The position numbers and the translations under genes were made by a program. This document shows, piece by piece, positions 7,236 through 26,331 of a stretch of DNA of 64,000 bases (its first letter is position 1; every line of letters begins with the position of its first letter). This stretch comes from Clostridia bacterium (GTDB lineage: Bacteria; Bacillota; Clostridia; UBA1381): NCBI GenBank assembly GCA_045538755.1, contig JAZQEC010000002.1, positions 117,740 to 181,739 on the forward strand. The letters are read 5' to 3'. The notes beneath the pieces are model-generated. The model was given only the letters and a program-made list of their open reading frames with translations, was not told the DNA's origin and ran no database searches.

Positions 7236-7242
7236 TTAAATA

Positions 7243-7293
7243 TGGTGCGGATGACAGGACTTGAACCTGCACATCGTAGACACTAGATCCTAA
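7243..7293 (-). pseudogene. Orphan 3' half of a tRNA-Leu gene (CCA end to anticodon loop), left junction of the island
   Basis: 51 nt aligned to the first 51 nt of the intact tRNA at 29401-29451 with 8 differences. The match stops after gatcctAA. Acceptor 3' strand is CATCCGC. Confidence 0.8.
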
Positions 7294-7347
7294 TGCTTGA
7301 TACACCTCGGTGAAGAAATAAAATTCTTCATCGGAGGTGTATTTTTT

Positions 7348-8133: not shown

Positions 8134-8534
8134 TACATCCGCAATCATAATCGCATAGATTGAGTTTGATTTTTGTGGTAAGGTAGTTACACCACCCTGA
8201 AAAGTTAATCTCTCGAACCGAAAAGATAAGCCCTATGTTAAGCCCTTAAAATCGATTTGAAAGAACAAACGAAGGTGCGAGAAATCACCTGACGGGGCGC
8301 CCCGAAACGGCGAGGTGTGGTGTTTTAAAAGAAGCAGGATAAAGCTTGGTGCGCTATTCGCCCCAAGCAGGCTTACATCGCCGTGCAAAGCCCGGCGGAG
8401 AGGTTCCCAAAGTGCATCTGCTGGTGATGGTTTGGTGCTGTAATGCGGATTTTCCGCACGGTTGAGCCTTGAAATTGGTGCATATACAGGTATTAATGGT
8501 ATTTAACGATATTTTGAGAAAGGTGAGTGTTATA

Positions 8535-9656: not shown

Positions 9657-9683
9657 ATCTATAAAAGGAAGGTGAATTTTATT

Positions 9684-10040
9684 ATGAAAAGAGAAAAGAT
9701 GACATTCAATGTGCCGCCTGCGGTACGAACTGAAATCAAAAATTATGTTAAACTACTGGGCTTCAAAAGCGAGAGTGATCTCTGCAACAAGGCTATCAAT
9801 GAGTACCTTACCAAGCTGCATTATGAAGCAAACAGTGACAACATAAATAAGATTTTGGTTCAGGCGGTGGACTGTACTATAGAGCATCATGTGGACAGAG
9901 TGTCGGACATGTTCTTCAAACTTGCTGTCAGCATCGAGAAACAAAATCTCATTGCCAGCGGTGAGTATGATGATTACTATGAAAGTTATATTGAAGAGGT
10001 CGCAATCGAAAATGTGCAGAAAAGACATGGAAGGTTGTAA
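9684..10040 (+). CDS. Small accessory protein, possible ribbon-helix-helix
   Basis: MTFNVPPAVRTEIKNYVKLLGFKSESDLCNKAINEYL resembles a beta-strand plus two helices of CopG/RHH proteins; lies directly after the relaxase. Confidence 0.35.
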   Translation: MKREKMTFNVPPAVRTEIKNYVKLLGFKSESDLCNKAINEYLTKLHYEANSDNINKILVQAVDCTIEHHVDRVSDMFFKLAVSIEKQNLIASGEYDDYYESYIEEVAIENVQKRHGRL

Positions 10041-10128
10041 AATCAGGTTGCACATATTTTATGTAAATAATTGAATTTTGTCGCAATATGTGTTAAAATG
10101 TAATCAAGAAGTTATCGGAGGTTTTATT

Positions 10129-11007
10129 ATGGATAATAACGATAAGATACAAATATTTGAAGATAAAAAAATCAGAACTGCATGGAATGAAGAAACTGAA
10201 GAATGGTACTTTTCTGTGGTGGATGTTATATCAGTACTAACTGATCAGGCAACCCCAAGAAGTGCAAGTACATATTGGGCTGTTCTTAAAAAACGTCTTA
10301 AAGATGAGGGTGCCGATGAACTGCTTACAAATTGTAAGCAGTTGAAAATGACTGCAGCAGATGGCAAAAAAAGAATGACCGATGTTGCTGATACTGAACA
10401 ATTGCTCCGCATCATTCAGTCCATTCCTTCTCCAAAGGCAGAACCATTCAAGCTGTGGCTTGCACAGGTTGGAAGGGAAAGAATTGAAGAAACGATTGAT
10501 CCCGAAATTGCTATTGACAGAGCGTTAGAGACCTATCTCAAAAATGGTTATGATGAAGATTGGATTCATCAACGTATACTTTCCATCAGAGTAAGAAATG
10601 AACTTACTGCTGAGTGGCAACAGCGTGGCGTTGAAAAAGGCAAAGAATATGCAATTCTTACTGATGAAATCACAAAGGCATGGTCAGGTATGACAACGAG
10701 AAAATATAAAAATCTCAAAGGTCTCACCAAAGAAAACTTGAGAGATAATATGAGTACAACAGAACTCATACTTAATATGCTTGCAGAAACATCAACCAAA
10801 GATATATCAGAGCAAGAAAAGCCCGATGGGTTTGCAGAGAGTATAAAGGTTGCTCAATCAGGCGGTGAGGTTGCTAAAATCGCAAGAGAAGCCTTGGAGA
10901 AAAGAACCGGAGTTTCTGCAATAACATCAAAAAATGCAACTGAACTTAATCAGGTAGTGACAGATTTAATTGAAGGAATTGCGGAAGATATTGATGATGA
11001 TAAATAG
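10129..11007 (+). CDS. Bro-N domain protein (antirepressor/DinD-like)
   Basis: IQIFEDKKIRTAWNEETEEWYFSVVDVISVLT is a typical Bro-N start; GGAGG RBS before the ATG at 10129. Confidence 0.6.
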   Translation: MDNNDKIQIFEDKKIRTAWNEETEEWYFSVVDVISVLTDQATPRSASTYWAVLKKRLKDEGADELLTNCKQLKMTAADGKKRMTDVADTEQLLRIIQSIPSPKAEPFKLWLAQVGRERIEETIDPEIAIDRALETYLKNGYDEDWIHQRILSIRVRNELTAEWQQRGVEKGKEYAILTDEITKAWSGMTTRKYKNLKGLTKENLRDNMSTTELILNMLAETSTKDISEQEKPDGFAESIKVAQSGGEVAKIAREALEKRTGVSAITSKNATELNQVVTDLIEGIAEDIDDDK

Positions 11008-11024
11008 GCTTAAGGGGATTTTTT

Positions 11025-12572
11025 ATGAGTGCAAATATAACTTTGGGGAAATCAAATTCCACTGTAATTAAAGGGTTTTTAAAAAAGGATGATGCAGAAT
11101 ACCCATTTTTATATACTAATGGAAAATTGGATGTATTTCCTCCTGACTCAAAATCGAAGACATCATTACAATCAGGTTTTTTTGAAGAAATTAATAAACC
11201 TTTCCAAAAGGGAAAAGTTATTCCTCAACTATTTATTGAAGGAGTTACATCTACAGGCCAGAAAATTATATTTGAAACATCAGAACATCATTCTAATAAT
11301 AATGGTTTTTTAACTTATAATATTGATTCAATATACTGCTATGATAAAACCAGTACAAAATACAAACCCAATAATACAGATGATAAAACAAGTATTTCAA
11401 AGCCTGAAGATATAAAATCAGATGCAGATAAAATTGTAAAAAGAATACATAATTGGGATATAGTAACTAATGAAATTGATGGAATGGTTATTTCGGGAGA
11501 ATCTATAGATTTATTTTTCAATCCAGGTTATGCTTTTCAACTTAATAACACATGGAATGAAAATGGTTCATTGGGAGCGTTGTCTATATCTGCTTTACCA
11601 CCTACTGAATATGATTGTGGCTCAATAGAATATGACGGAATAACACTTAATGTAAAGGTAAAAGCTGTTGCTACACAACATACATTTTCTGCGGAACCTT
11701 TTTCTAGTAAAAGTAGTATGATAATAAATTTTTCAAAACCAGTAAGTATTGCAATGGTAAAAGAAGTTAGATTGTCCATAGAACATGTATTGTCATTTCT
11801 CCAAAAAAGACAAAATATCGAATTAAATGAGACGGAGATCTTTTGCACAAATTGTGGATACAAAAGAATTTTCGGATCATTTGTTATTCAAAAAAATGCA
11901 ACTATCCAAGAAATTGATAATAAAAAGAAAAAAAGATTGATTGATTATACCATTATCAAAGATTGTTTTTCCAATCTAGTCTTATTGAGTTTGCAAAACA
12001 AATTGTATTACGAAAACATCCCGAAATGTACTGCTGACTGGAATGTTTACGGACCAGATAGAATCATTTTTAATTTTGCCGCTTTTGATCGTATTAGCGA
12101 ATTATATTATTCTGAGACGATGCGTTCTCAGGATTTTTATGATGTGAGATCTTTATTCTTTGAAATATCAAAAGAACTTCAAATAAAATTTGGAGGCAAA
12201 AAGAAAAAAGCAGCTAAAGAGATAGGAAAACGGATATTGGGATTGGAGAGTAGTTTACAAGATAGATTTGTTAAAATAATTAAAGAACACATTGGTTGTA
12301 TAGATGTGTTTATGGAACTAAACTATGGTAAAACATGGCGTACAAAAATACCATCGATTGGCTCCAGATTGAATACTATTCGCAATGATATTGCACATGG
12401 TCATATGGATTTGCATTACGATGATAATACGATATTAGATTTTGAAACTCTAGAGATATTATTATATGCAATTTGGTTAAGAAAGGCTGATCTTTGCGAT
12501 TATAACATAAAAATTGCAATTGAACAATTGTTTCATTTAGGGGTGCTTATAGAAGACAAAAACAACGAATAA
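11025..12572 (+). CDS. HEPN-motif protein, ApeA-like single-protein defence candidate
   Basis: C-terminal R-x4-H motif in SRLNTIRNDIAHGH. Large N-terminal domain of unknown function. Starts 17 nt after the Bro-N gene. Confidence 0.5.
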   Translation: MSANITLGKSNSTVIKGFLKKDDAEYPFLYTNGKLDVFPPDSKSKTSLQSGFFEEINKPFQKGKVIPQLFIEGVTSTGQKIIFETSEHHSNNNGFLTYNIDSIYCYDKTSTKYKPNNTDDKTSISKPEDIKSDADKIVKRIHNWDIVTNEIDGMVISGESIDLFFNPGYAFQLNNTWNENGSLGALSISALPPTEYDCGSIEYDGITLNVKVKAVATQHTFSAEPFSSKSSMIINFSKPVSIAMVKEVRLSIEHVLSFLQKRQNIELNETEIFCTNCGYKRIFGSFVIQKNATIQEIDNKKKKRLIDYTIIKDCFSNLVLLSLQNKLYYENIPKCTADWNVYGPDRIIFNFAAFDRISELYYSETMRSQDFYDVRSLFFEISKELQIKFGGKKKKAAKEIGKRILGLESSLQDRFVKIIKEHIGCIDVFMELNYGKTWRTKIPSIGSRLNTIRNDIAHGHMDLHYDDNTILDFETLEILLYAIWLRKADLCDYNIKIAIEQLFHLGVLIEDKNNE

Positions 12573-12701
12573 CTTATTACATTTAAAAGTCTGGATTAGT
12601 AGTTTTTAAACAAGAATAAGCCTATGTTTTAAAGCATGGGCTTTTTCTGTACACAAAATTTGGTCTTCATAAACCAAAGAAAAGAATTTTGAAAACCTTC
12701 G

Positions 12702-12730
12702 TGGACTTCCGCTCTCTTCTGTGGTATGCT
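12702..12730 (+). promoter_or_regulatory. Promoter-like element, copy A (TGGACT-17-TGgTATGCT)
   Basis: Part of a 36-nt block (12696-12731) that is 30/36 identical to 26345-26380. Followed by an RBS, a 17-codon ORF (12755-12808) and a hairpin. Confidence 0.35.
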
Positions 12731-12902
12731 TTGTCTCGCAGGAGGTGAAAAAATATGACAAGGCATACAAATGACTTAAGGCGATTGTTAATTCCTTTTA
12801 TGAATTAGCAATCGCCTTTTGAAATTAATACACTGAAACATTGACAACTCTTATATATTTTATCATTGGTGGTAAAATAAAATAAAAAGGAGTTGTTGAA
12901 AC

Positions 12903-13748
12903 ATGAATGAAATTACTAAACGCACTATTGAAGACTACAAGAATTATTTAATCGAGGAAGAAAAAAGTTCCGTCACCATAGAAAAATATATTCGTGACAT
13001 AAATGCATTCGTGCAGTGGTCGGACGGCAGAGCAATGACAAAGATACTTGTGCTTGAATACAAAAACATATTAGTACAGCAATATGCTCCTGCAAGTGTG
13101 AATTCGGTTTTATCTTCTCTCAACGGATACTTTAATTACATTGAAAGATACGATCTGAGGGTCAAGAACTTAAAAGTGCAAAGACAAATCTTCTGTCAGA
13201 GTGAAAAGGAACTGACCAAAGCAGAATACGAAAGACTTCTCAAAGCTGCAAAGAATAAAAAGAATGAGCGCCTCTACCTCATTATGCAAACGATATGTGC
13301 CACAGGAATCCGTGTGAGTGAACTGAAATACATCGATGTAAATTCTGTTATGACAGGTCAGGCTCAGGTTAGGTTGAAAGGCAAAATTCGAATAATAATA
13401 CTTCCAAAGGAACTGTGCCAACTACTGAAAAAATATATAAAGGAAAGGCATATCACATCAGGCAGTGTATTCGTAACGAGAAAAGGTCAACCTGTGGACA
13501 GGCACTCAATATGGAAATCGATGAAACAGTTGTGCGAGACCGCCGGAGTGTCAAAAGAAAAAGTGTTCCCACATAACCTCCGCCACCTGTTCGCACGAAC
13601 CTACTATTCGCTACAAAAAGATATCGTTCGCCTGGCGGATATACTTGGTCACTCAAGCGTAAATACTACCAGAATCTATACCATAGAAAATGGTTCTACC
13701 CACCGCAGGCAAATGCAAAGAATGGGACTTGTACGGATGCAAAATTAA
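12903..13748 (+). CDS. Tyrosine site-specific recombinase (XerC/XerD-like)
   Basis: ATGIRVSEL (Arg), HNLRHLFARTY (H-x-x-R) and LGHSSVNTTRIYT (His and Tyr) catalytic motifs; N-terminal SAM-like domain. Confidence 0.85.
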   Translation: MNEITKRTIEDYKNYLIEEEKSSVTIEKYIRDINAFVQWSDGRAMTKILVLEYKNILVQQYAPASVNSVLSSLNGYFNYIERYDLRVKNLKVQRQIFCQSEKELTKAEYERLLKAAKNKKNERLYLIMQTICATGIRVSELKYIDVNSVMTGQAQVRLKGKIRIIILPKELCQLLKKYIKERHITSGSVFVTRKGQPVDRHSIWKSMKQLCETAGVSKEKVFPHNLRHLFARTYYSLQKDIVRLADILGHSSVNTTRIYTIENGSTHRRQMQRMGLVRMQN

Positions 13749-14003: not shown

Positions 14004-14027
14004 AGCTAATGGGAGTTGAGTAGAAAT

Positions 14028-14549
14028 ATGCCCGACATAGATAAAGAAAAATCTTGCTGCTTCTTCGGTCACAGAAAGATTACTGAAACAGAAGAATTAA
14101 AAAATAACCTATGCAGAATTATAGAAAATTTAATTGTAAATGAAAAAGTTGATACCTTCCTATTCGGGAGCAAAAGCGAATTTGACAGTTTGTGCCTTAA
14201 AACAGTAACCGAGTTGCGAGAAAAATATCCTCGCATCAAGCGGATATACGTCAGGTCAGCATTTCAACATATTCCCGACTGGTATGAGGATAGTCTGCTT
14301 AAACATTATGAAGGTACATACTTCCCTGAACATATGGAAAACGCAGGCAGAGCATCTTATGTGGAACGCAATCAGGAAATGATTAACCACAGTAAATTCT
14401 GCGTGGTTTATTACGATGAAAACTATCTTCCTCCAAGACGTAGAAACAGCAGACGGGATTTGTTTGACTACCAACCCAGAAGTGGCACAAAGCTTGCTTA
14501 TGAATATGCTGAAAGAAAAAACAGAAGTATTATTAATCTTTTGAGTTGA
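14028..14549 (+). CDS. SLOG-superfamily protein (DUF1273/YpsA-like)
   Basis: N-terminal CCFFGHRKI motif, then an alternating beta/alpha pattern and about 175 aa, typical of DUF1273. Confidence 0.5.
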   Translation: MPDIDKEKSCCFFGHRKITETEELKNNLCRIIENLIVNEKVDTFLFGSKSEFDSLCLKTVTELREKYPRIKRIYVRSAFQHIPDWYEDSLLKHYEGTYFPEHMENAGRASYVERNQEMINHSKFCVVYYDENYLPPRRRNSRRDLFDYQPRSGTKLAYEYAERKNRSIINLLS

Positions 14550-14638: not shown

Positions 14639-14668
14639 TTGACAAATCTAACACCAATATGGTAAAAT
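14639..14668 (+). promoter_or_regulatory. Sigma-A-type promoter upstream of the XRE gene
   Basis: TTGACA, an 18-nt spacer, then TGgTAAAAT. Confidence 0.5.
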
Positions 14669-14723
14669 AATGTAAATTATGAATTCATTTAGTTGGTTAC
14701 TCTACGAAAAGAGGTTTGTAATA

Positions 14724-15269
14724 ATGGAAGAGATATCAAGATTTTTTCTAACTGAAGAAGAAAAGAATGAATTTATCGAAGCATTGACACCGGAATTAGC
14801 ACTGCTCCGGGCAAAAGCAGAAATATCACAAGAAGAAATAGCAAATTTAATAGGAGTTTCAAGACAAACGTATGGTTCGATAGAGAGAAAGGCGAGAAAA
14901 ATGTCATGGAATACTTACCTATCTCTTATTCTTTTTTATGATTATAATAAAAAAACGCACAAGATGATTCGAAACATCTCAGCTTTTCCGCATGAGTTAA
15001 TTAAACGTTTTAACGAAGGTGAAGAACCGGTTGACTTTGAGTTAAACATGTTATTTAAGGCGGATACAAAGAACATTATTGATTCGTTAGATGAACAGGC
15101 TATCTCCACACTAAAGACCATTTTAATGGTAGAATATTCTCGTTGTAATAATATTTCTGGTGAAGCGGTTGTTAAGTTCTTTGAGGGTGTTGATTTTACA
15201 AAGAGAGAAATTTCAGAAAAACAAGAAGATACAGCACAAGCATTAAAGAACATTAAAAGGAACAATTAG
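14724..15269 (+). CDS. XRE-family HTH transcriptional regulator
   Basis: ISQEEIANLIGVSRQTYGSIERKARKMSWNTYLSL HTH_3-type motif; AGAGG RBS before the ATG at 14724. Confidence 0.75.
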   Translation: MEEISRFFLTEEEKNEFIEALTPELALLRAKAEISQEEIANLIGVSRQTYGSIERKARKMSWNTYLSLILFYDYNKKTHKMIRNISAFPHELIKRFNEGEEPVDFELNMLFKADTKNIIDSLDEQAISTLKTILMVEYSRCNNISGEAVVKFFEGVDFTKREISEKQEDTAQALKNIKRNN

Positions 15270-15272
15270 AAT

Positions 15273-15950
15273 ATGAGCAAAGCTATTAAGAAAATTACAA
15301 ACCAATTTATAAAACAACATTCAATATCAGTTGTAAATTATTCTACTTTAAGAGACGTGGCAAAAAGAATTGGTTATACAATTATAGAATTCAATAACAT
15401 TTTTAATGATAAAGATGTTGAAACGGTTATACAGAATTTACGACTCAGTGAAGCGGTGTCTCAATCAAGAGGATTTACATATGTAAGTAAAGATTATCGC
15501 CTTATTTTTATAAATGAGGATTTAAGCGATGATGAAAAGACTTTGGTTCTCTCGCATGAACTTGGGCATATTGTTTGCGAACATTTTACAACCACTCCTA
15601 TCATAGGCAAGGATGTCAAAGAGGAATATGAAGCAAATGAATTTTCTCATTATTTATTAAATCAAAACTCTTTGCGTAATTTAAAACTTACGATTACAAA
15701 ACATAAAAAGAAAGTAGCAGTAGTTGCACTGTCTTTTGTTGCCATATTGGTTACGATTGTCACTGTTATCACTATTAATCAAGAACAATCGTATTACGAC
15801 AATTGTTATATCACATCGACAGGAAATAAATACCATAAAAAAGATTGTATTTTTGTCAAGGATAAAACAACTGTAAAACGGTTGACTAAAGAAGAATATG
15901 ATGCCGGCAAATATGAAGCGTGCGACATGTGCTTGCCTGACAAAGAATAA
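15273..15950 (+). CDS. ImmA/IrrE-family zinc metallopeptidase with a TM helix and a C-terminal His/Cys cluster
   Basis: HELGHIVCEH HEXXH motif. TM helix VAVVALSFVAILVTIVTVITI. C-terminal YHKKDC...CDMC. Starts 4 nt after the XRE stop, the classic ImmR/ImmA pairing. Confidence 0.7.
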   Translation: MSKAIKKITNQFIKQHSISVVNYSTLRDVAKRIGYTIIEFNNIFNDKDVETVIQNLRLSEAVSQSRGFTYVSKDYRLIFINEDLSDDEKTLVLSHELGHIVCEHFTTTPIIGKDVKEEYEANEFSHYLLNQNSLRNLKLTITKHKKKVAVVALSFVAILVTIVTVITINQEQSYYDNCYITSTGNKYHKKDCIFVKDKTTVKRLTKEEYDAGKYEACDMCLPDKE

Positions 15951-15982
15951 ACATCTGCATTATGAGGAGAAAGGAAATTATT

Positions 15983-16852
15983 ATGGATAACGAAAAGAAA
16001 GTTATGTCTGCAACAGAAAACATAGAAAGCTCGGAGAATGTAGTTTTAGAAACACCAAATGCAACAGAAGAATCATGTTCCGTTGAATCAAATAGTGAAG
16101 AAAGAAGATGCCCAAACTGTGAAGCACTGATTATTGAAGAGAAATCTTTCTGCACGGAATGTGGTACTTCACTAAAAAGTGCCTGCGCAAAGTGTGGTAC
16201 AGAGTTGCAACCTGGACAACTTTTCTGTCCAGAATGCGGTAACCAAATAACTGAAAGCAACTGCGATGGGAATATAGCACAATATAATAAAGAAATTGCT
16301 GATAAGCAGAGAAAGAAAGGTAAACACAAAAAACTTAAAATCGTTCTAAGTGTAATTTTAGCAGTTTTGGTCGTAGTCGGTGGTTATTTTGGTTATATCT
16401 ATCATTTGAGACAACAAGTTTTAGGATATGCAATAGAAACAGAAAAATATATTGAAGCTATAAATGATACCAAAAGCGATCTCTCGGCTGCTAACGAAGC
16501 CTGGAATATAGTAAACAACGGTGGTTCTTGGCTTTACTATGGAACATTAAAATCTTATGCTAGATCGATGTTTTCAACTAACATTTCAAATGCAAAAACT
16601 GCAAATTCAAAAATAGTAGACCTCTATAATGATATAAAAGAATTTGAAATGGATGATTCATATGTTGATGATATAAAAGCAAAAGCACAAGAAGTGCAAG
16701 ATGTTTATTTGAGCGTGTATGATTCTGTAATTGTCAACGAAAGCGGCTATAGCAGTTCGAGTCTTTCAAATTTATCTACTAAGATTTCAGAACTCCAAAA
16801 AATTGTAGAAAATGTTAAAGATGCGTATGGTAACGCAAATGTGAAAAAATAA
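15983..16852 (+). CDS. Double zinc-ribbon / single-pass TM protein with helical extracytoplasmic domain
   Basis: CPNC-x10-FCTECG and CAKCG-x9-FCPECG, Lys-rich stop-transfer KQRKKGKHKK, TM helix IVLSVILAVLVVVGGYFGYIY. Confidence 0.6.
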   Translation: MDNEKKVMSATENIESSENVVLETPNATEESCSVESNSEERRCPNCEALIIEEKSFCTECGTSLKSACAKCGTELQPGQLFCPECGNQITESNCDGNIAQYNKEIADKQRKKGKHKKLKIVLSVILAVLVVVGGYFGYIYHLRQQVLGYAIETEKYIEAINDTKSDLSAANEAWNIVNNGGSWLYYGTLKSYARSMFSTNISNAKTANSKIVDLYNDIKEFEMDDSYVDDIKAKAQEVQDVYLSVYDSVIVNESGYSSSSLSNLSTKISELQKIVENVKDAYGNANVKK

Positions 16853-16887
16853 ACCGCATAGCGGTATATAGAAAGGAACTTTATATT

Positions 16888-17574
16888 ATGGAAAACGAAA
16901 ACAAAGTTATGCAGGAAGCAACAGTAACCGAAGCGGTTGAAAACGAAGCAAAGCAGCCTACAACAGAAAACAGATGCCCAAATTGTCAGGCTCTGCTTGG
17001 TGAAGGTCAAACCTTCTGTCCCGAGTGTGGAACTCCGCTTAAAAAACTTTGTCAGAAATGTGGTGCAGAACTGCAGAATGGACAGGTGTTTTGCGCAAAG
17101 TGTGGTCAAAAGACGGATGGAACCGTTGTGTTGGATGCTAGCCAAGCCATCAATCAGTTTAATACAAATATGGTAGCTCAACAAAAGAAAAACAAACTTA
17201 TTCCAGTTATTATTGGCGGAGTTTGCGTAGCTATTGCCATTCTACTTTTTGCTAGCGGAACAATCGGCGGTGGAGTGAATTTTGAAAAGAAATTTGCAGA
17301 TATAGCAGATGAATCATGGTGTGACATAGCATCTGATGGAAGTTATATGAAGTTAGATACAAATCCATATGATATTGAGGATAGCTTTGAAAGAGATGCA
17401 TGGAATGCAATTGAAGATACCAATGCAGAATTAGGCTTTTCAGAAGCGTTATTTAGTAAAATGGGTGAAACGCGGTCTATGGATGGAAGACAGTCAGACG
17501 AAAACGATAAATATAAAGTGACTTGGACATATCACCCGGATAAAGGTCTTGAAGTTATGTATGAGAAGAAATAA
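16888..17574 (+). CDS. Double zinc-ribbon / single-pass TM protein (paralog of the previous gene in its N-terminal module)
   Basis: CPNC-x10-FCPECG and CQKCG-x9-FCAKCG; TM helix LIPVIIGGVCVAIAILLFA. The N-terminus MENENKVMQ parallels MDNEKKVMS. Confidence 0.6.
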   Translation: MENENKVMQEATVTEAVENEAKQPTTENRCPNCQALLGEGQTFCPECGTPLKKLCQKCGAELQNGQVFCAKCGQKTDGTVVLDASQAINQFNTNMVAQQKKNKLIPVIIGGVCVAIAILLFASGTIGGGVNFEKKFADIADESWCDIASDGSYMKLDTNPYDIEDSFERDAWNAIEDTNAELGFSEALFSKMGETRSMDGRQSDENDKYKVTWTYHPDKGLEVMYEKK

Positions 17575-17608
17575 ATAACAACAAAAAATTTGACAAGGAG
17601 AATATATC

Positions 17609-18214
17609 ATGGGAAAATTAAATGTAATTATTGTTGACGCAACAGGAAACAAGGAGCAAAAGGTTGGATTACCTGATGATGTAAAAATCGGTATCATTAT
17701 GGTTAAGCTTGTTGAAAAAATCAAATTGCCTTCAACAGGTCCTGATGGTAATCCTATCAGCTATAAATTCATACATAAAGTTTCCGGAAGACAGCTTTTG
17801 GAAACACAGACTTTAGCAGATGCTCATATCAAAGATGGAGATGTATTAAGGCTTCAACCCGAAATTACTGCAGGCGCAGTTTGCACAAAGTGCGGTAAAA
17901 CTATGCAAGATGGAGTTGCTTTTTGCACAGATTGCGGACAGCCGATGAATATTGTACAGCAACCAAATTTTGTTCAACCCAATTATGGAGTATATCAGGT
18001 TAACACAATCAACAAATCTACCCCTGTTAAGGTGTTGGGAATTATTTCGTCGGTAATACATTTTTTGGCGACATTTATATTTTTAATGGTAGCTTTCGAT
18101 TGTTATGATTTTGAATATGCAGCACCATATCTTATGTTTGCGTTTTTCTTTTGTGCCCAGGGGTTTTTAACTTTAGCAATGACTATTTATATGTCAAACA
18201 GAATTAAAAAGTAA
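17609..18214 (+). CDS. Ubiquitin-like beta-grasp domain fused to a zinc ribbon and two TM helices (tethered Ubl precursor)
   Basis: Residues 1-89 have a beta-grasp-like pattern ending GDVLRLQPEITAG (compare ubiquitin LVLRLRGG). Then CTKCG-x9-FCTDCG and two hydrophobic helices. Confidence 0.6.
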   Translation: MGKLNVIIVDATGNKEQKVGLPDDVKIGIIMVKLVEKIKLPSTGPDGNPISYKFIHKVSGRQLLETQTLADAHIKDGDVLRLQPEITAGAVCTKCGKTMQDGVAFCTDCGQPMNIVQQPNFVQPNYGVYQVNTINKSTPVKVLGIISSVIHFLATFIFLMVAFDCYDFEYAAPYLMFAFFFCAQGFLTLAMTIYMSNRIKK

Positions 18215-18224
18215 GGTGAATATT

Positions 18225-19412
18225 ATGTCGACGGAATTAGAATTAAATAAAGAGGATTTTGAAGAAACCAGATATTCACGATTAGAACTTATTCCCTGGT
18301 GGAATCAAGAACTTCTACACAATTCAACAGTAATGGTTGTAGGTGCCGGTGCCATCGGCAATGAACTTATCAAAAACCTTGCCTTGCTTGGTGTGGGCAA
18401 AATCGTTATTGTTGATATGGATAAGATTGAGCAAACAAACCTTACTCGTTCTATTCTTTATAGAATGAAAGATGTTGGCAAATATAAATCCCAGGCCGCA
18501 GCAGAAGCTGCTATGGAGATTAATCCTGATGTTAAAGCAATATGCCTCAATCAGAATATTGTTACAGATATTGGTCTTGGTGTATTTCGCAGTATGGATA
18601 TTGTTCTCGGTGGTCTTGATAACCGTGAAGCAAGACTTGCAATTAACCAGTCATGTTATAAGGTAAACAAGCCCTGGATTGATGGTGCTATTGAGGTTTT
18701 AAACGGTTTTGCTAGAGTGTTTGTTCCGCCCGGTCCGTGTTATGAATGCACAATGACCGAAACAGACTGGAAACTCATCAATAAACGTAAATCCTGTGCA
18801 CTTTTAACGCATGATGAGATGTTAGAAGGCAAAACGCCTACTACACCTACTTCATCATCAATTATTGCAGGTGTTCAGGTTCAAGAAATGCTGAAGATTT
18901 TGCACAATGACAGAAATCTTCCTACGCTTGCCGGCAAAGGGTATGTGTTCAATGGACTTACCCATGATTCTTTTGTCGTAGAGTACCAGCTTAAAGATGA
19001 TTGTATGAGCCATGATTTGTATGACAATATAAGGGAAATGGATTGGTCTGCTCGTGAAGTGTCTGTAAAAGATGTTTTAAATCAGGCAGCAAAAGACCTT
19101 GGTGATGGTGCAATCATTGAATTTGATCGTGATATTGCTACAACTGCAACCTGTGTTTGTGGAGATACAAAAGACATTTTCAATACTGTGAACCGTCTTC
19201 GTGGCAAAGATATTGTTTGCGAAAAATGTGGTAAATCTATGCAATTTGAAACTATACACACAATTAATGGTGAAGAAGATTTTCTTGATAAAAAATTATA
19301 TGAAATCGGTATACCTTTGTATCATATCATTGCAGTGAGGAAAGGTATGAAATATGTTTATTATGAATTATCAAAAGATAAAAACGAAGTGTTAGGAGGT
19401 CTGTTTGAATGA
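18225..19412 (+). CDS. E1-like adenylating enzyme (ThiF/MoeB/UBA family)
   Basis: VMVVGAGAIGNE Gly-loop, DxD at IVDMDKIEQTNLTRS, GGLDNREAR, and two Cys pairs (CYEC, and CVCG...CEKCG). Its stop overlaps the E2 start (ATGA). Confidence 0.8.
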   Translation: MSTELELNKEDFEETRYSRLELIPWWNQELLHNSTVMVVGAGAIGNELIKNLALLGVGKIVIVDMDKIEQTNLTRSILYRMKDVGKYKSQAAAEAAMEINPDVKAICLNQNIVTDIGLGVFRSMDIVLGGLDNREARLAINQSCYKVNKPWIDGAIEVLNGFARVFVPPGPCYECTMTETDWKLINKRKSCALLTHDEMLEGKTPTTPTSSSIIAGVQVQEMLKILHNDRNLPTLAGKGYVFNGLTHDSFVVEYQLKDDCMSHDLYDNIREMDWSAREVSVKDVLNQAAKDLGDGAIIEFDRDIATTATCVCGDTKDIFNTVNRLRGKDIVCEKCGKSMQFETIHTINGEEDFLDKKLYEIGIPLYHIIAVRKGMKYVYYELSKDKNEVLGGLFE

Positions 19413-21334
19413 ATGCAAGAATGAGGAGAATTGCCTCCGACTATGAACAGATTAAGAAGAATTTTTCGAATCATAAGAATATTGTAGTAGAACCAATTGG
19501 TGAAGAACCTGCCGAAAAGTACAGAGTTACATATTATGTAAATGGTATATACCTTTTAGAAGACGGCAGGATCGAAACTCTTGGTAAACACATCGTAATT
19601 ATTACATTACATGCTGAATATCCGAGATATAAGCCGATATGTACTATTGCTACACCTATCTGGCATCCTAATTTTAGAGATGGACAGATTTGTATAGGTG
19701 ATATCTGGGGAGCTGGAGAATCACTCTGCGATATTATTGTAAACATCGGTGATATGATTCAATATAAATCCTGGAACTCCTTTAGTCCTCTTTCTGCTGA
19801 TGCTGCCGAGTGGGCTATTGCAAACAAACACCTATTCCCTGTTGGTAATGTTAATTTGTGGACCGGCGAGGAAGAAGACGGCACAGTAAAAAAAGAGTTT
19901 GATATTGATCTTTTTGATGAAGATGAAGAAACATCATCAACTGAAACTATTCCGGAAGTGGTAGAATCCGCTCCTGTACAGGAAGAAATGCCGGTTGTTT
20001 CAGCAGAAACAACTGTTGAACAAGTTCCTGTAGCTACTGCTATATTGGAAAATGAAGATGAGAATGACTTTGAAATTACTGCTGAAGAATTAGAAGGAAT
20101 TGAATTTGTTCCGACTGCAGTAAGAATGCAAGGCAGCCAATATGGAGCAACTGCAAAAGGTGGCAAAGTTAACTTTAAAACTGTATTAGTCAAAGGCTTA
20201 TTATGGGCTTTAATAGGCGCATTTATTGGCTTTGGTGTTTCAGAAGTTTCTGATGGTTTAACTGGTAATGCCTCCGTTGCAAGAATGTTAGGACATCCTG
20301 AAATTGCTGAATATTATGAATATACAGAGCAAGCAAATGATGTTTTAGCCCCTGTAGATGCAGCATTTGAAAAATACTGCAAAGAACAAGGAATAGATCC
20401 TGAATCAGAAAACGCTTTAACAAATTGGTTGACGAACAATACTTCTAAGTATTCAAGTACTGTCGAAAAATATTTGGAATACAATGAAAAAGCCGAAAAT
20501 GCATTGTATGAAGCCTATGAAAATGATTTTAATTCTAACGAAGACAAACTTGGCGAAGCGATGGAAGGAATATCAAGAACTCATACTGCATTGTGGTCCG
20601 CATTAATCGCTTTATTCATCGGTCTTTTCCTTGGTCTTGGAGAAGGCATATACTATGGTTCAAAGGAAAATGCAATTAAATATGCTTTAATTGGTGCCGG
20701 TATATCAATAGTTGTTGGTGCTGTAAGCGGATATCTTGCACAGTGGATGTATGCTTCGATGTTGACCGATTATTCGTCTGACTTTACCAAAGCTCTCGTA
20801 AGAGGTTTGGGTTGGGCAATAATGGGTATTGGTATAGGCTTATCCGTAGGTCTTATCAAATCTGAACAAAAGAGAATAATTTTCTGTTCTCTCGGTGGTG
20901 TTATTGGTGCATTTATAGGAGGATTCCTATTTAACTATGTATGTGATATCATTCCAAATGACATTGTTGCACGCGGATTTGCAATAGTTATTATGGGCCT
21001 TTTGATCGGTGTTGGCGTAGGTGTACTTGAACAGTTTGCAAAAGCTGCTTGGCTCAAAGTTATAAGAGGTGAATTTGAAGGTAAAGAATATCTTGTATTT
21101 GAAGGTACAACAAGTATTGGTAATAGTGGAAAGAACACTATTGTATTGTTCAAAGATAAACTTGTTGCACCAAATCATTGCGATATTGTTCAAGAAGGTA
21201 GCAAATATGTCCTGGTAGATAAAGGCTCACCAATGGGTACTGTTGTTAATGGTATGCGTGTGACTCGCCATGTTTTAAAACAGGGTGATGCAGTTGCTAT
21301 CGGTAACTCTGTACTAGTATTTAACACGAAATAA
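19409..21334 (+). CDS. UBC-type E2 fused to about six Gly-rich TM helices and a C-terminal FHA domain
   Basis: YPRYKPICTIATPIWHPNFRDGQICIGDIW (H86-P87-N88, Cys95). Hydrophobic GxxxG-rich segments between about residues 258 and 545. C-terminal IGNSGKNTIVL...VVNGMRV...GDAVAIGNSVLVF is FHA-like. Confidence 0.75.
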   Translation: MNARMRRIASDYEQIKKNFSNHKNIVVEPIGEEPAEKYRVTYYVNGIYLLEDGRIETLGKHIVIITLHAEYPRYKPICTIATPIWHPNFRDGQICIGDIWGAGESLCDIIVNIGDMIQYKSWNSFSPLSADAAEWAIANKHLFPVGNVNLWTGEEEDGTVKKEFDIDLFDEDEETSSTETIPEVVESAPVQEEMPVVSAETTVEQVPVATAILENEDENDFEITAEELEGIEFVPTAVRMQGSQYGATAKGGKVNFKTVLVKGLLWALIGAFIGFGVSEVSDGLTGNASVARMLGHPEIAEYYEYTEQANDVLAPVDAAFEKYCKEQGIDPESENALTNWLTNNTSKYSSTVEKYLEYNEKAENALYEAYENDFNSNEDKLGEAMEGISRTHTALWSALIALFIGLFLGLGEGIYYGSKENAIKYALIGAGISIVVGAVSGYLAQWMYASMLTDYSSDFTKALVRGLGWAIMGIGIGLSVGLIKSEQKRIIFCSLGGVIGAFIGGFLFNYVCDIIPNDIVARGFAIVIMGLLIGVGVGVLEQFAKAAWLKVIRGEFEGKEYLVFEGTTSIGNSGKNTIVLFKDKLVAPNHCDIVQEGSKYVLVDKGSPMGTVVNGMRVTRHVLKQGDAVAIGNSVLVFNTK

Positions 21335-21345
21335 TATAGAAGGAG

Positions 21346-22200
21346 ATGAGTGGTATGAAATATAGAATTATCAGCATAGCGATTGTGTTCATACTGCTTA
21401 TCTCTTTTTCTGCATATGCAATTAACTTTACACCTGAAGAGACATATAATTCGGTGGTTGTTGTATATACAGATACAGGGGTTGGCAGTGGTTTTTCTAT
21501 TAAAGAAAATATAATAATAACAAACGCACATGTTGTGGGATACAGTAAAAAAGTTGCAGTTAATTTATACGATGGAACGACAATTAAAGGCAACGTTATA
21601 AAAACTGATATTGAAAAAGATTTGGCGTTGATTGAGGTTGATAAAACAATTACACCATTAAGTATAAATTCAAACAATTTAAGTATAGGTCAGGAAGTAT
21701 ATGCAATAGGCGCACCAAAAGATATGCCTTACACCATGACCAAAGGAATCATATCAGCACTTGACAGAAAACTTGGACAAAACACCTACATACAAATAGA
21801 TGCATCTGTAAATTCCGGAAACAGTGGCGGTCCGCTTGTTGATGACAATGGAAATGTGATTGGAATCATTACTCTAAAAGCATCTGATGCGGAAGGAATT
21901 GGCTTTGCAATTAACACAAAAGATATCAATAATTTTATTGAAGGTGTAGAAGTCCCTGAGCAACAAGTTTCTTCTGAAACCGAAAATGGAGAAAAAGATA
22001 TATTGCCAAACGAAAATAATGCTGAAACAAATGAAATGCAAAAGACTCTTATGGCAGAAAACGATGGATTAAAAATAGCACTGTGTATGTCTGTTATTTT
22101 TAATATTATATTAGGATTGTTATACCTTCACATATTGTTTAAAAAACGTTCCAAGAAAGAAAAAGACGAGTTTGATTTTGAAATTGAAATTGAGGAGTAG
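21346..22200 (+). CDS. Trypsin-like (S1/HtrA-type) serine protease, exported, with C-terminal TM anchor
   Basis: Signal-like MKYRIISIAIVFILLISFSAYA. Triad motifs TNAHVV, DLALIEV and GNSGGPLV. C-terminal helix LKIALCMSVIFNIILGLLYLHILF. The start may be the ATG at 21355. Confidence 0.8.
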   Translation: MSGMKYRIISIAIVFILLISFSAYAINFTPEETYNSVVVVYTDTGVGSGFSIKENIIITNAHVVGYSKKVAVNLYDGTTIKGNVIKTDIEKDLALIEVDKTITPLSINSNNLSIGQEVYAIGAPKDMPYTMTKGIISALDRKLGQNTYIQIDASVNSGNSGGPLVDDNGNVIGIITLKASDAEGIGFAINTKDINNFIEGVEVPEQQVSSETENGEKDILPNENNAETNEMQKTLMAENDGLKIALCMSVIFNIILGLLYLHILFKKRSKKEKDEFDFEIEIEE

Positions 22201-22205
22201 CGATT

Positions 22206-23177
22206 ATGAAGAAGAAAAAAACTAAGGCAAGGGTTTCTCATAAAAATATTACACCCGATTTGCCACAAAATATAGTTCCTGTAGGAGAAAGAGTTTTTGA
22301 TGATAAAAACATTTATATTCATCAAAAAGTTTATGCACAAATACATAAATTTGCTGCCAATAAAACAGAAAATGAGCATGGTGGAATCTTGGTTGGCAGA
22401 ATTCTAAATGAAATGGGTAAAGAAAATACAATTATAGAAGGCTTTATTGAAGCGAAATACAATGCAGCTACGCCTACTACTTTAACATTCACCCACGAAA
22501 CATGGGATTATTTCCATTCTGAAATGGATAGAAAGTATAAGGATAAAAAAATTGTGGGATGGATTCATACTCATCCTAATTTTGGAATATTCTTGTCTGA
22601 AAATGACCGATTTATACAACAAAATTTCTTCACTGATGCTAATCAGGTAGCCTATGTAGTCGATCCAATTCAAAATGATGAAGGCTTCTTCTTTTGGGTG
22701 AATGAAAAATTAGAACGTTGCCCTGGTTTTTACTTGTTTGATAAAAACGGAGTTAAAATAAAACAAAAGGCATGGTCAACTGATCCGGATGAACTTAATG
22801 AAGATGTAATTGTAAAACATAGTAAGATACATCCTATTCTTACAATTGCACTTGTTCTTGTTATACTTGTAAATCTTTTTGTGATAATGCAACAATCTAG
22901 GAGAATAGACACGCTTGAAAGGCAGGTTGAGGATCAGGAATTGGTACTTCGGTATGGTGTTCTTGGCATTTATGGTAATCCTGAAATATCGGATGTTGCT
23001 GATAATATAAGACAGCAAATAGAAGCACAGGAAAAATCTAAAAAACAAGCGATTCAGGATGCTATGAAACAACAAAAAGAACAACAAGCGACAGAGGCGA
23101 ACGAACAAGAACAAAAAGAAGAAAAAAATACTGAAGAAAATGAAACAAACACAGAGAATAACGGAGGTACAGAATAA
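22206..23177 (+). CDS. JAB/MPN (JAMM) metallopeptidase with TM helix and E/Q/K-rich tail
   Basis: ENEHGGILVG (Glu) and HTHPNFGIFLSEND (H-x-H-x7-S-x2-D); TM helix IHPILTIALVLVILVNLFVIM. Confidence 0.8.
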   Translation: MKKKKTKARVSHKNITPDLPQNIVPVGERVFDDKNIYIHQKVYAQIHKFAANKTENEHGGILVGRILNEMGKENTIIEGFIEAKYNAATPTTLTFTHETWDYFHSEMDRKYKDKKIVGWIHTHPNFGIFLSENDRFIQQNFFTDANQVAYVVDPIQNDEGFFFWVNEKLERCPGFYLFDKNGVKIKQKAWSTDPDELNEDVIVKHSKIHPILTIALVLVILVNLFVIMQQSRRIDTLERQVEDQELVLRYGVLGIYGNPEISDVADNIRQQIEAQEKSKKQAIQDAMKQQKEQQATEANEQEQKEEKNTEENETNTENNGGTE

Positions 23178-24022
23178 TGGATTTTATAGGTAAAATTTGT
23201 CCCTATTGCAAAACTGAATTTAAAGAAGGCGATGATGTCGTTGTATGTAGCGTTTGCGAAATGCCACATCACAAAGAATGTTGGATAGAAAATAAAGCAT
23301 GTACTACATTTGGATGCACAGGCACAATTGTTGGTGCAGAGCAATATGCAGAAGCTGTAGATAATAAGACATTCTGTTCTAAATGTGGAGCGCCTTTAAG
23401 TGAAGGGCAAAAATTCTGTGCTTCATGCGGAACACCAGCAGGAGCAACAGGTGAACCACATTTTCAGGTTGCTGGAGCATATGCGGCAAACCAAAGTTAT
23501 CAGCAAAATACATATACTGCGCCTCAGCCACAGTACACACCTCAATATTCTGCTCCGCAGTATAATGCTGGTTATAATCCTTATGGTCAACAACAGGTCG
23601 ATCAGGATTTATATACATTTATACAGTCTAATCAGCCATTCTATATATCAAAGTTCCAAAAAATGCAGATGAGTAACAGTAAAACATCATGGAATTGGTG
23701 TAGCTTTTTATTCAGTGCATATTGGTTGGCATATAGAAAAATGTATGGTATAGCAGCGGCATATGCCGGAATCTCCTTCGTATTAGGGTTGATTCCTGGT
23801 CTTGGTTCTATTTTAGGATTAGCAATGTCTATCTGTGCTGGTATATTTGGAAATCATTTTTATAAACAATATATAGACGGAGAATTACAGGTAGCTAAGA
23901 GTATGGATGCGATGAATAAAACCGCCTATATAGCCAAGAAAGGTGGAACAAGCGCAGGTGCAGTTTGGGTTGTTATAGGAATAATGACTGTTCTTGGAAT
24001 GATAATAGGCAGTAGCATGTAA
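23177..24022 (+). CDS. Prok-RING-like C4HC3 finger + zinc ribbon + Q/Y/P-rich linker + DUF2628-like TM domain (E3 candidate)
   Basis: C8-x2-C11-x12-C24-x2-C27-x4-H32-x2-C35-x6-C42-x4-C47 in ICPYCKTEFKEGDDVVVCSVCEMPHHKECWIENKACTTFGC. Then FCSKCG-x9-FCASCG, and WNWCSFLFSAYWLAYRKMY. Confidence 0.6.
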   Translation: MDFIGKICPYCKTEFKEGDDVVVCSVCEMPHHKECWIENKACTTFGCTGTIVGAEQYAEAVDNKTFCSKCGAPLSEGQKFCASCGTPAGATGEPHFQVAGAYAANQSYQQNTYTAPQPQYTPQYSAPQYNAGYNPYGQQQVDQDLYTFIQSNQPFYISKFQKMQMSNSKTSWNWCSFLFSAYWLAYRKMYGIAAAYAGISFVLGLIPGLGSILGLAMSICAGIFGNHFYKQYIDGELQVAKSMDAMNKTAYIAKKGGTSAGAVWVVIGIMTVLGMIIGSSM

Positions 24023-24033
24023 GGAGGCTTATT

Positions 24034-24996
24034 ATGGATGATACAAATATTGAAATTTTAGAAACCGAAAGTGTTGTTATCGAAAGTTCAGTAGTTGCAT
24101 TACCTATGAATTTTGTGTCTGTAGGAACTGTGGAACACGATAGTGTTCAGGTTTATATCAAACAAGATGTTTATAAACGAATAGAGAAATTCGCTAAAGA
24201 AGAAATGTCAAAAGAAGTTGGAAGTATTTTAATTGGCGACTATGTGGATGAAAAAGACAGAAAAACTATAATAATTTCAAATTACATTGAAGCAAAATAT
24301 ACCGATGCTTCTGCCTCTACTCTTACCTTTACACATGAAACATGGGATTATGTATATAGAGAAAAGGATAAAAAATATCCGGACAAAAAAATAGTTGGCT
24401 GGCAACACACTCACCCGGGATATGGAATTTTCCTATCAAATTATGATATTTTCATACAGGAAAATTTCTTTAACCTTCCTTGGCAGATTGCATATGTTGT
24501 AGATCCTATTGCAGATACAAGAGGATTTTTTGAGTGGAAAAATGATAAAGTTGCCAAAATGTCAGGCTTTTATGTTTATGATGAAATTGGCAGAGAAATA
24601 AAAATTTCAGAAAAAGCCAAGCCTGTTAAAAAACATTTTTCCATTACAACTATTATTTTGTCGTTCTTGCTACTTGTTTCGCTATTGGTTTCAGTTTCGT
24701 TTGGGATTGAGAAAAACAATGTTATGGATAGGCTCAACGAAGCACTTGCAACGATAAGCCAGCAATCCAACATTCAAATGGATGAAACACCAACGGTAGT
24801 AGAACAAGAACTGCCCGAAGATGTTGAAGCATTTAAGGTGTATGTAGTACAGGAAGGTGATTATCTAGAAAGTATATGCGAGCAATATGGTTTAGATTAC
24901 ATGAGCAATATACAGAAGATAATGAGAATCAATAGCATAACAGATGTAAATAAAATCTATGTAGGTCAAAAATTGTACTTGCCTATAAACGAATAA
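24034..24996 (+). CDS. JAB/MPN (JAMM) metallopeptidase with TM helix and C-terminal LysM
   Basis: SKEVGSILIG and HTHPGYGIFLSNYD JAMM motif. TM helix ITTIILSFLLLVSLLVSVSFGI. LysM: YVVQEGDYLESICEQYG...INSITDVNKIYVGQKLYLP. Confidence 0.8.
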   Translation: MDDTNIEILETESVVIESSVVALPMNFVSVGTVEHDSVQVYIKQDVYKRIEKFAKEEMSKEVGSILIGDYVDEKDRKTIIISNYIEAKYTDASASTLTFTHETWDYVYREKDKKYPDKKIVGWQHTHPGYGIFLSNYDIFIQENFFNLPWQIAYVVDPIADTRGFFEWKNDKVAKMSGFYVYDEIGREIKISEKAKPVKKHFSITTIILSFLLLVSLLVSVSFGIEKNNVMDRLNEALATISQQSNIQMDETPTVVEQELPEDVEAFKVYVVQEGDYLESICEQYGLDYMSNIQKIMRINSITDVNKIYVGQKLYLPINE

Positions 24997-25008
24997 AGAG
25001 GTGTTTTT

Positions 25009-26290: not shown

Positions 26291-26331
26291 AAAGAGATAT
26301 AGCAGCATTTGGTTGTTATATCTCTTTTTTC
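26291..26331 (+). terminator. Rho-independent terminator closing the Ubl operon
   Basis: aaagagatata / tatatctcttt stem followed by a T-run. Confidence 0.65.

Follow-up and report, generated by a model that had tools for sequence, protein, structure and literature searches.

A putative membrane-anchored precursor of a ubiquitin-like modifier, encoded with eukaryote-like ubiquitination enzymes on a Clostridial mobile element

How is one to understand a bacterial ubiquitin-like (Ubl) domain that continues, within a single reading frame, into a zinc ribbon and two transmembrane (TM) helices? The question is raised by an open reading frame (ORF) at positions 17609-18214 of a 64,000-nucleotide stretch of DNA from a Clostridia bacterium of the lineage UBA1381 (GenBank assembly GCA_045538755.1, contig JAZQEC010000002.1, positions 117,740 to 181,739 of the forward strand), which we refer to in its whole length as the window and from whose first letter all coordinates are counted. 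The best explanation is that the product is the precursor of a Ubl modifier in a membrane-associated, eukaryote-like ubiquitination system on a Clostridial mobile element. We consider it likely that a JAB peptidase of the same operon cuts between Gly89 and Ala90 and frees a Ubl of 9.6 kDa, which the E1, the E2 (through Cys95) and the RING protein then attach, and that the JABs also deconjugate it. What the sequences show is architecture, fold, boundary, catalytic motifs, synteny and predicted topology; the cut at Gly89, which comparison with related proteins and operons strongly supports, is inferred, as are the enzyme that would make it and the conjugation that would follow.

Bacterial ubiquitination-type pathways have been worked out for type II CBASS, Bil and Bub and, judged from its sequences, the membrane-bound Clostridial family looks like a further one. 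It would be the most eukaryote-like in its parts list (Uba1-like E1, HPN-Cys E2, RING, Rpn11-like JAMM), wholly membrane-bound and disseminated among gut and rumen Clostridia on mobile elements, with a modifier conserved nearly as strictly as ubiquitin. Burroughs et al. reportedly described, in 2011, mobile bacterial operons with an E2, sometimes an E3, and a JAB, and the Prok-RING_1 Pfam entry, said to derive from that work, is said to mention the association with Ub, E1, E2 and JAB and the TM helices of the bacterial versions; the operon class has probably been described bioinformatically already. A search of full-text literature, beyond which the surveys of Burroughs, Iyer and Aravind lie, returned no paper, experimental or descriptive, that treats a YukD-like Ubl together with E1, E2, RING and JAB in Firmicutes. 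Prokaryotic Ubl precursors processed by JABs are already known; what appears to be new here is the fusion to a membrane anchor, within an experimentally uncharacterised Clostridial system. Processing of the precursor to the Ubl, if real, would define the mature modifier and establish the family as a conjugation system.

The Ubl domain, its tail and the Gly89 boundary

The ORF starts with ATG, 6-12 nt downstream of the ribosome-binding site AAGGAGA, and encodes 201 aa, in which a ubiquitin fold (residues 1-89) comes first, then a C4 zinc ribbon spanning C92-C109 and, after a linker, a pair of TM helices. An initial annotation, made from the letters alone, had already placed Ubl, ribbon and two helices in one ORF, and Pfam, AlphaFold2 (AF2) and hydropathy all agree with it. 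The computed masses are 22.2 kDa for the full-length precursor, 9.6 kDa for Ubl(1-89) and 12.6 kDa for the remaining fragment. An identical protein is recorded in NCBI, ENA and Logan assemblies; the precursor and its relatives are nameless in all sources matched, and the Ubl is without a match to the PADLOC or NCBIfam models. The parts of the gene are:

17609..17875 (+), ubiquitin-like beta-grasp domain, residues 1-89, C-terminal end LRLQPEITAG (Pfam, AF2, Foldseek)
17873..17878 (+), predicted scissile bond Gly89/Ala90, codons GGC GCA (invariant AG, ends of orthologues)
17882..17935 (+), C4 zinc ribbon, C92, C95, C106 and C109 (Zn_Ribbon_1)
17936..18016 (+), weakly conserved linker, residues 110-136 (predicted local distance difference test, pLDDT, <50 at 115-131)
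18017..18208 (+), TM hairpin anchor, helices 137-164 and 172-200 (AF2, hydropathy)

Residues 12-82 match the Pfam family YukD (PF08817), a ubiquitin-like beta-grasp family, with E=5.6e-12 and 46.7 bits, above the curated cutoff of 27. The AF2 model, built with 28 homologues (alignment A1), has the order of elements of a beta-grasp (strands 3-9 and 16-22, helix 27-38, strands 49-56 and 79-86), its helix coinciding with IGIIMVKLVEKI, the segment to which the initial annotation had assigned one. A sequence search of the PDB with the Ubl domain found Caldiarchaeum subterraneum ubiquitin (CsUb) as a marginal match only (E=0.93), so that a comparison of structures was required: Foldseek matched the model to ubiquitin variants, CsUb (6fj7), BilA (8tyx), NEDD8 and SUMO in the PDB with a probability of 1.00 each, the target-normalised template-modelling scores being 0.72-0.85 for ubiquitin, CsUb, NEDD8 and SUMO, and 0.77 at 27% identity for 6fj7 itself. 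The compact beta-grasp proposed for residues 1-89 is borne out by these three lines.

The tail begins with a Zn_Ribbon_1 match at residues 92-112 (E=1.4e-6; C92-x2-C95 ... C106-x2-C109). The initial annotation, which wrote the motif as CTKCG-x9-FCTDCG, was right about the ribbon and miscounted, trivially, the spacer, which has 8 residues. The linker that follows varies in length and sequence across alignment A1, and the TM helices, at 137-164 and 172-200 in the AF2 model, are put at 145-163 and 175-193 by a hydropathy scan. Charges of +2 ahead of TM1, 0/-3 in the loop and +3 past TM2 place, by positive-inside counting, the short acidic loop outside and the basic C-terminus NRIKK inside.

The boundary between domain and tail is best seen in the relatives. 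When one genome per species was scanned, 99 relatives turned up, and the 80 loci retained (L001-L080) belong to Oscillospiraceae, Lachnospiraceae, Acutalibacteraceae, Christensenellaceae, Clostridium, Tissierella, Pelotomaculum and Synergistaceae. All 80 have LRLQPEITAG, and tblastn matches mostly end at residue 89-91. In alignment A1 residues 1-90 are near-invariant, ending LRLQPEITAG-A, with the A88-G89 pair in 28/28 sequences; beyond this point only the four ribbon cysteines are kept, and the membrane parts, hydrophobic throughout, are of at least two unrelated types. The (A/G)G pair whose conservation the initial annotation had asked about is invariant in both sets (28/28 and 80/80) and lies exactly at the domain end. 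What follows the glycine in the 80 loci falls into these classes:

12/80 loci, stop codon immediately 3' of Gly
50/80 loci, 1-10 unrelated residues (A, AM, GVK, GNYGK, KQDG, ...)
12/80 loci, zinc ribbon and TM as in the window
5/80 loci, other TM with a large outside domain
1/80 loci, ORF interrupted by the contig end

Long membrane tails are thus found in 17/80 loci and no anchor in 62/80. The residue after the glycine is variable (A in 32, G in 19, otherwise R, V, K, N, C, S or T). A domain-only, filter-free search of 1.84 billion representatives gave 625 matches, in which LRLQPEITAG is retained at 50-60% identity, many of these relatives stopping at the Gly and a few carrying other zinc-ribbon tails. 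The fused architecture of Ubl and tail is present in at least 120 independent protein clusters at 90% identity and in 13 species-representative genomes. The invariant terminal Gly, the orthologues that end there and the variable extensions of the others make up the pattern expected of a modifier that needs a free C-terminal Gly and whose extensions are discarded. The initial annotation had proposed that the product needs cleavage after about Gly89, and the comparison (12/80 loci ending at Gly, 50/80 with short tails) speaks for such a predicted cut.

Conservation falls sharply past residue 90, and within the operon the Ubl domain is the most conserved product, as the median identities to the window proteins over the same loci show:

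Ubl domain, 89%
FHA domain, 83%
E2 domain, 79%
E1, 68%
JABs, 64%
trypsin-like protease, 38%
RING, 38%
Ubl tail, 36%

The DNA of the Ubl domain is, at the median, 74.5% identical, and of its 89 codons a median of 43.5 differ synonymously only, as against 10 that change the amino acid (about 4:1). On these sequence counts the domain is under strong purifying selection, reminiscent of ubiquitin.

The operon and a proposed route of processing

The precursor is the fifth of 12 genes in a tightly packed plus-strand unit (14679-26283), bounded by the best promoter match (14639-14668) and a terminator-like hairpin with a 16-bp stem (26291-26327). A promoter-like match at 17590-17618 was rejected, since it runs into the start codon and scores no better than chance. 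The window holds one Ubl gene, a second having been looked for and not found. The other genes of the unit are:

14679-15269 (+), XRE helix-turn-helix (HTH) protein (Pfam)
15273-15950 (+), membrane-anchored M78/ImmA-like metallopeptidase with a Cys-rich outside C-terminus (Pfam)
15962-16852 and 16888-17574 (+), two paralogous double-zinc-ribbon membrane proteins, each with one TM helix and a variable outside domain (DZR, Zn_Ribbon_1)
18216-19412 (+), E1, ThiF/Uba1-like, 398 aa (Pfam ThiF, 7.5e-55)
19409-21334 (+), E2 with UBC domain, about six TM helices and C-terminal FHA, 641 aa (UQ_con 61-143, FHA 568-632)
21346-22200 (+), trypsin-like serine protease with N-terminal signal/anchor and C-terminal TM helix (Trypsin_2, 1.3e-29)
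22206-23177 (+), JAB1, JAMM peptidase with one TM helix (Pfam JAB, 2e-9)
23177-24022 (+), Prok-RING_1 E3-like protein with zinc ribbon and DUF2628 TM region (Prok-RING_1, 2.5e-14)
24034-24996 (+), JAB2, JAMM peptidase with TM helix and LysM (JAB, 6.2e-10; LysM 270-317, 7.4e-10)
25009-26283 (+), membrane protein with zinc ribbon, TM helix and DUF5780, last of the unit (Pfam)

Across the loci the order Ubl, E1, E2-FHA, (trypsin), JAB, RING, JAB is conserved, and the genes are present as follows, in counts that include many truncated contigs: E1 in 79 of the 80, E2-FHA in 75, RING-class in 66, trypsin in 60, JAB2 in 56 and JAB1 in 53. The E1 gene lies directly 3' of the Ubl in 79/80 loci; its product has the GxGxxG motif, with Cys194 and the Cys pairs 175/178 and 335/338 invariant in 41/41 sequences, and its best PDB relatives are the active adenylation domains of eukaryotic Uba1 (1.7e-30), ahead of ThiF/MoeB. 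In the E2, the motif HPN-x6-Cys95 is kept as HPN-Cys in 74/77 orthologues, and the closest solved relatives are eukaryotic UBC enzymes, aligned across this region. The JAMM motif HxH-x7-S-x2-D, which reads HTHPNFGIFLSEND at residue 121 of JAB1 and HTHPGYGIFLSNYD at residue 125 of JAB2, is intact in 52/54 orthologues of one JAB and 55/56 of the other; the best PDB relative of JAB1 is the Rpn11-like enzyme of Caldiarchaeum (6fjv, 1.7e-8), followed by proteasomal Rpn11. The Ubl thus shares its operon with an E1, an E2 and a deubiquitinase (DUB) that all keep their catalytic residues. For the E2 and the RING protein PADLOC offers no model, the sole E2 match (JetC, E=0.045) being insignificant and unrelated, and NCBIfam has none for JAB1 or M78.

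Whether the JABs could reach the predicted site depends on the side of the membrane on which each domain lies. The precursor is predicted to have its Ubl, ribbon and C-terminus in the cytoplasm, and the same holds for the JAB domains of JAB1 and JAB2 (with a charge of +4 ahead of the TM helix of JAB2); the peptidoglycan-binding LysM of JAB2 then comes to lie outside, as expected. The E2 and FHA domains are predicted inside; in the accessory proteins the zinc ribbons are predicted inside and the variable domains outside. The catalytic domain of the M78 protein is predicted cytoplasmic and that of the trypsin-like protease outside the membrane. The predicted topology therefore puts the JABs, and not the trypsin-like protease, in the same compartment as the scissile bond. 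The initial annotation had counted two JABs with cytoplasm-facing domains in the operon, which Pfam and the predicted topology uphold, and had named them as candidate processors; at least one JAB is present in 52/52 loci with at least 7.5 kb of downstream sequence (two in 40/52) and, with their intact JAMM motifs, predicted cytoplasmic position and likeness to Rpn11 and CsRpn11, the JABs are the best candidates for the processing enzyme.

On the reading that we favour, the C-terminal helical hairpin would insert the precursor in the membrane with the Ubl and the zinc ribbon on the cytoplasmic side, where one or both of the membrane-anchored, cytoplasm-facing JABs would cut the Gly89-Ala90 bond. 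The products would be an 89-residue Ubl of 9.6 kDa ending in EITAG and a zinc-ribbon membrane remnant of 12.6 kDa. The adjacent E1 would adenylate the freed carboxylate of Gly89, the Ubl would be handed on to form a thioester with Cys95 of the E2-FHA in the membrane and, with the TM RING protein, would be ligated to a target at the membrane, a modification that the same JABs could reverse.

Related systems and rival explanations

The same five-component logic (pro-ubiquitin, E1-like, E2-like, small RING and Rpn11-like JAMM) is found in the operon of Caldiarchaeum subterraneum (Aigarchaeota), where CsRpn11 removes the nine residues after GG of pro-CsUb, the uncut form being refractory to E1, and also cuts a linear Ub-sfGFP fusion (PMC5654768; PMC6043591). 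A C-terminal extension that blocks activation by E1 and is removed by the Rpn11-like JAMM of the operon, shown in Caldiarchaeum, is what we predict for the window. In both systems the E2 is of the thioester type and has a catalytic Cys; among solved structures the one nearest to JAB1 is CsRpn11, and the Ubl has CsUb among its best structural matches. They differ in that the CsUb extension consists of 9 soluble residues after GG, whereas here 112 residues follow AG and form a zinc ribbon and TM hairpin; in that E2, RING and both JABs are here membrane proteins, the E2 with an FHA domain; in the additional outside trypsin-like protease, LysM and several zinc-ribbon membrane proteins; and in the bacterial host and the mobile-element-borne operon. 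In the window the genes for Ubl, E1, E2 (UBC-type, with the catalytic Cys), RING-family protein and Rpn11-like JAMM are co-linear, and by this predicted parts list the system belongs to the eukaryote-like prokaryotic ubiquitin operons typified by Caldiarchaeum.

Comparable trimming is known from two bacterial systems. In the antiphage system Bil (BilABCD) the JAB BilC cuts BilA at G97/A98 and so leaves an AG end after a conserved Gly, at an AG/A site analogous to the one predicted here, and it also cleaves a Ubl-GFP fusion (PMC10557695). Bil is without RING or membrane anchoring, its Ubl tails have at most 9 residues (PMC10557695), its E2 is of the CEHH type, and its E1, BilD, is a multidomain IAD-AAD-CYS protein, in contrast to the 398-aa E1 with a single adenylation domain found here. 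Membership of the Bil family was considered and rejected: the E1 has only a weak PADLOC match to BilD (3e-8, core), and Ubl and E2 have no matches to Bil families. In Bub (6E/DUF6527) the Ubl is made at the N-terminus of a longer chain that includes another component of the system, the Ubl-E2 fusion BubAB, from which the JAB BubCD frees it (PMC11601596). The fusion partner there is the E2 enzyme, whereas here it is a membrane anchor, and Bub works by oxyester intermediates with E1 and E2 lacking a catalytic Cys, unlike the HPN-Cys of our E2 and the invariant Cys194 of our E1; with the catalytic Cys present and no match to the DUF6527 serine protease (BubE) among the operon proteins scanned with Pfam, Bub membership was also rejected. 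The initial annotation had called the arrangement an unusual design, which overstates the case, JAB trimming of extended or fused Ubls having been demonstrated already for CsUb, BilA and BubAB.

Two comparisons bear on architecture. The eukaryotic fusions UBA52 (Ub-L40) and RPS27A (Ub-S27a) place an N-terminal ubiquitin ahead of a small zinc-binding ribosomal protein, which works in its own right once DUBs have cut it free, and secure 1:1 co-production; their tails are soluble ribosomal proteins and the DUBs that cut them are cysteine proteases. The likeness is an analogy in architecture, and the gene shows that the fusion of a ubiquitin-type modifier to a zinc-binding partner arose in bacteria as well as in eukaryotes. 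The YukD/EsaB proteins of type VIIb secretion (PF08817) share the beta-grasp fold and give the best Pfam match, but YukD is not conjugated and lies in ESX/type VII secretion system operons, whereas here the context is E1, E2, RING and JAB and the C-terminal Gly is invariant. A functional assignment to the YukD/EsaB family was rejected, as Pfam scans showed no type VII secretion domains and E1, E2-FHA, RING and JABs adjoin the Ubl in the 80 loci.

Several points weigh against processing by a JAB and subsequent conjugation. Confidence in the AF2 model is moderate (mean pLDDT 72, with 67-84 in the Ubl blocks), and the topology was read from hydropathy and charge counts, with no dedicated predictor. 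The scan for loci was seeded with peptide patterns of the query and favours close relatives, so that the frequencies of the tail classes are not population estimates. The full-text literature search found no experiments on cleavage or conjugation for the YukD-like Ubl family; the scissile bond lies only two residues ahead of the folded zinc ribbon, and access of a JAB to it is assumed from other systems; and JAB1 and JAB2 are not distinguishable as the processing enzyme.

The initial annotation favoured a different emphasis, a Ubl stored on the membrane and released on demand. Spelled out, the tether would keep the Ubl inactive until phage attack, damage to the envelope or a similar signal triggers the JAB cut; the sensor might be the LysM, the protease outside the membrane or one of the variable outside domains, and the supply of Ubl would be the switch. 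All components are indeed membrane-anchored, several with sensor-like outside domains, two JABs are present in all 11 long-tail loci with enough sequence, and the HTH/ImmA-like pair at the head of the operon is of a type that induces defence operons on stress. Yet 62/80 loci have no anchor (12 end at Gly and 50 carry 1-10 aa) and use the same machinery, which means that tethering is not the general control point; two JABs are usual whatever the type of tail (40/52), and nothing in the sequence separates regulated from constitutive cleavage. We find this account unlikely, and the claim of release on demand was not sustained. Quite unlikely, too, in our estimate, is an extension of JAB processing in which the zinc ribbon serves as the recognition handle of the natural substrates, the fast-evolving, receptor-like membrane proteins of the operon, the precursor being in effect an encoded linear 'ubiquitinated substrate'. 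If true, this would amount to a bacterial switch by ubiquitination and deubiquitination of membrane receptors, comparable with eukaryotic endoplasmic-reticulum-associated degradation or receptor ubiquitination; JAB cleavage would be coupled to envelope signals via LysM, outside protease and variable outside domains, and the hyperconservation of the Ubl would reflect its many interaction partners.

That the precursor is never cleaved, and that the Ubl is a non-covalent docking or assembly module at the membrane like YukD/EsaB in type VII secretion, would suit the best Pfam match, the report that YukD is not conjugated and the membrane-fused YukD-like domains described in the literature for actinobacteria. 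It seems very improbable to us when the neighbours are not type VII genes but a conserved set of E1, E2, RING and JAB, to whose E1 this is the sole Ubl available in the window; a docking role leaves the invariant terminal AG and the orthologues ending at Gly unexplained, and the best structural matches are ubiquitin, CsUb and BilA. We give as little weight to a cut at Gly89 by another protease, be it the M78/ImmA-like or trypsin-like protein, both of which are in the unit, or a host enzyme. The M78 domain is predicted cytoplasmic, as such a role would ask, but among the loci with sufficient sequence upstream the gene is missing from 27/35 with short and 5/11 with long tails, and it was set aside as absent from most loci; the trypsin-like protease was rejected as lying on the wrong side of the membrane by the predicted topology, and its gene is missing in several tail-bearing loci. 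The peptidase activity of JABs is moreover reported as limited to Ubl tails, and a JAB is used in all characterised prokaryotic systems. A lost stop codon or an assembly error, finally, might have joined the Ubl to a downstream zinc-ribbon gene, as the stop within 0-10 codons of the Gly in most relatives could suggest; this is effectively refuted by recurrence of the fusion in independent metagenomes (at least 120 clusters) and 13 species-representative genomes, and the four cysteines are invariant, the tail is hydrophobic throughout and the exact protein occurs in NCBI, ENA and Logan assemblies, so that we allow an artefact next to no chance.

Origin of the tail, accessory genes and the mobile element

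The ribbon type CxxCG-x6-8-FCxxCG is found in the operon in seven copies on five membrane proteins, six copies besides that of the Ubl tail, always in a cytoplasmic N-terminal position. The class of zinc-ribbon membrane proteins sits just 5' of the Ubl in most loci, and the outside domains of these proteins, which could be substrates, adaptors or sensors, are only 33-52% identical between loci. A second common type of tail consists of ribbon, TM helix, YGGDAYTGIQNAAAQTANN and TM helix; this YGGDAY type accounts for 48 of the at least 120 fusion clusters, the other 72 being window-like or of other types, and the same tail forms the C-terminal part of stand-alone genes directly 5' of short Ubl genes (L060 9197-9985, L054 9070-9936, and L063-L065). 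The ribbon class shared with the operon and the stand-alone tail genes argue that the long tails are fusions with the operon's own zinc-ribbon class and not novel pro-peptides. To judge from the anchorless majority of the family, the tail is a lineage-specific add-on and not core to the system; the fusion probably serves co-production and co-localisation.

In some relatives (L013, L054 and L063-L065) the ribbon-hairpin anchor is replaced by a single TM helix with a lipoprotein-like Cys and an outside domain of 200-300 aa, which is probably an independent fusion event; cleavage of these proteins would leave a different membrane protein.

Other parts of the unit suggest how it might be controlled. 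The fusion of UBC, TM helices and FHA in the E2 is kept in 75/80 loci, with a large outside loop at about 278-392; FHA is a phospho-Thr-binding domain, and its presence hints at phosphorylation-dependent control or choice of target. The envelope-facing modules of the unit are two, the trypsin-like protease, whose C-terminal TM helix is followed by a highly charged cytoplasmic tail, and the LysM at the outer end of JAB2. Sequences called 'bacterial lysM-associated JAMM sequences' were named by Fuchs et al. in 2018 and excluded from their analysis (PMC6043591). The XRE HTH and the M78/ImmA-like protein at the head of the unit are likely to be a pair of regulators. Only about 24-26 of the 80 loci have the pair, a distribution that marks it as an exchangeable regulatory module, and its PADLOC matches to capH and capP are weak. 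HTH/ImmA-like pairs drive stress-induced expression in Bub and other defence operons. A role of the whole system in conflict, defence or envelope stress is a reasonable guess.

An integrated mobile element carries the ubiquitination unit as cargo, as the neighbours annotated with Pfam (5968-13748) indicate, and arginine biosynthesis genes on the far side mark the chromosome:

5968-6849, CHAP/peptidoglycan-binding hydrolase
7297-8133, replication-type HTH protein (HTH_36/DnaD-like)
8469-9656, MobL relaxase
10078-11007, Bro-N protein
12903-13748, tyrosine recombinase
31074-33275, chromosomal argC-like gene and argJ

A plasmid megablast with the operon returned no match, and the Ubl domain had no relatives among the viral contigs scanned. 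The element also carries a 515-aa protein with a weak HEPN match. Between the recombinase and the operon lies a YpsA/SLOG-family protein of 177 aa (14016-14549); SLOG domains are often the nucleotide-sensing parts of conflict systems.

Near-identical operons (L008, L010, L074, L078 and L079) lie on contigs assigned to Phascolarctobacterium, Escherichia coli (a metagenome bin), Muribaculaceae and Synergistaceae, a placement that reflects either mis-binning or horizontal transfer beyond Clostridia. The same Ubl tail is shared by L008, L010 and L011.

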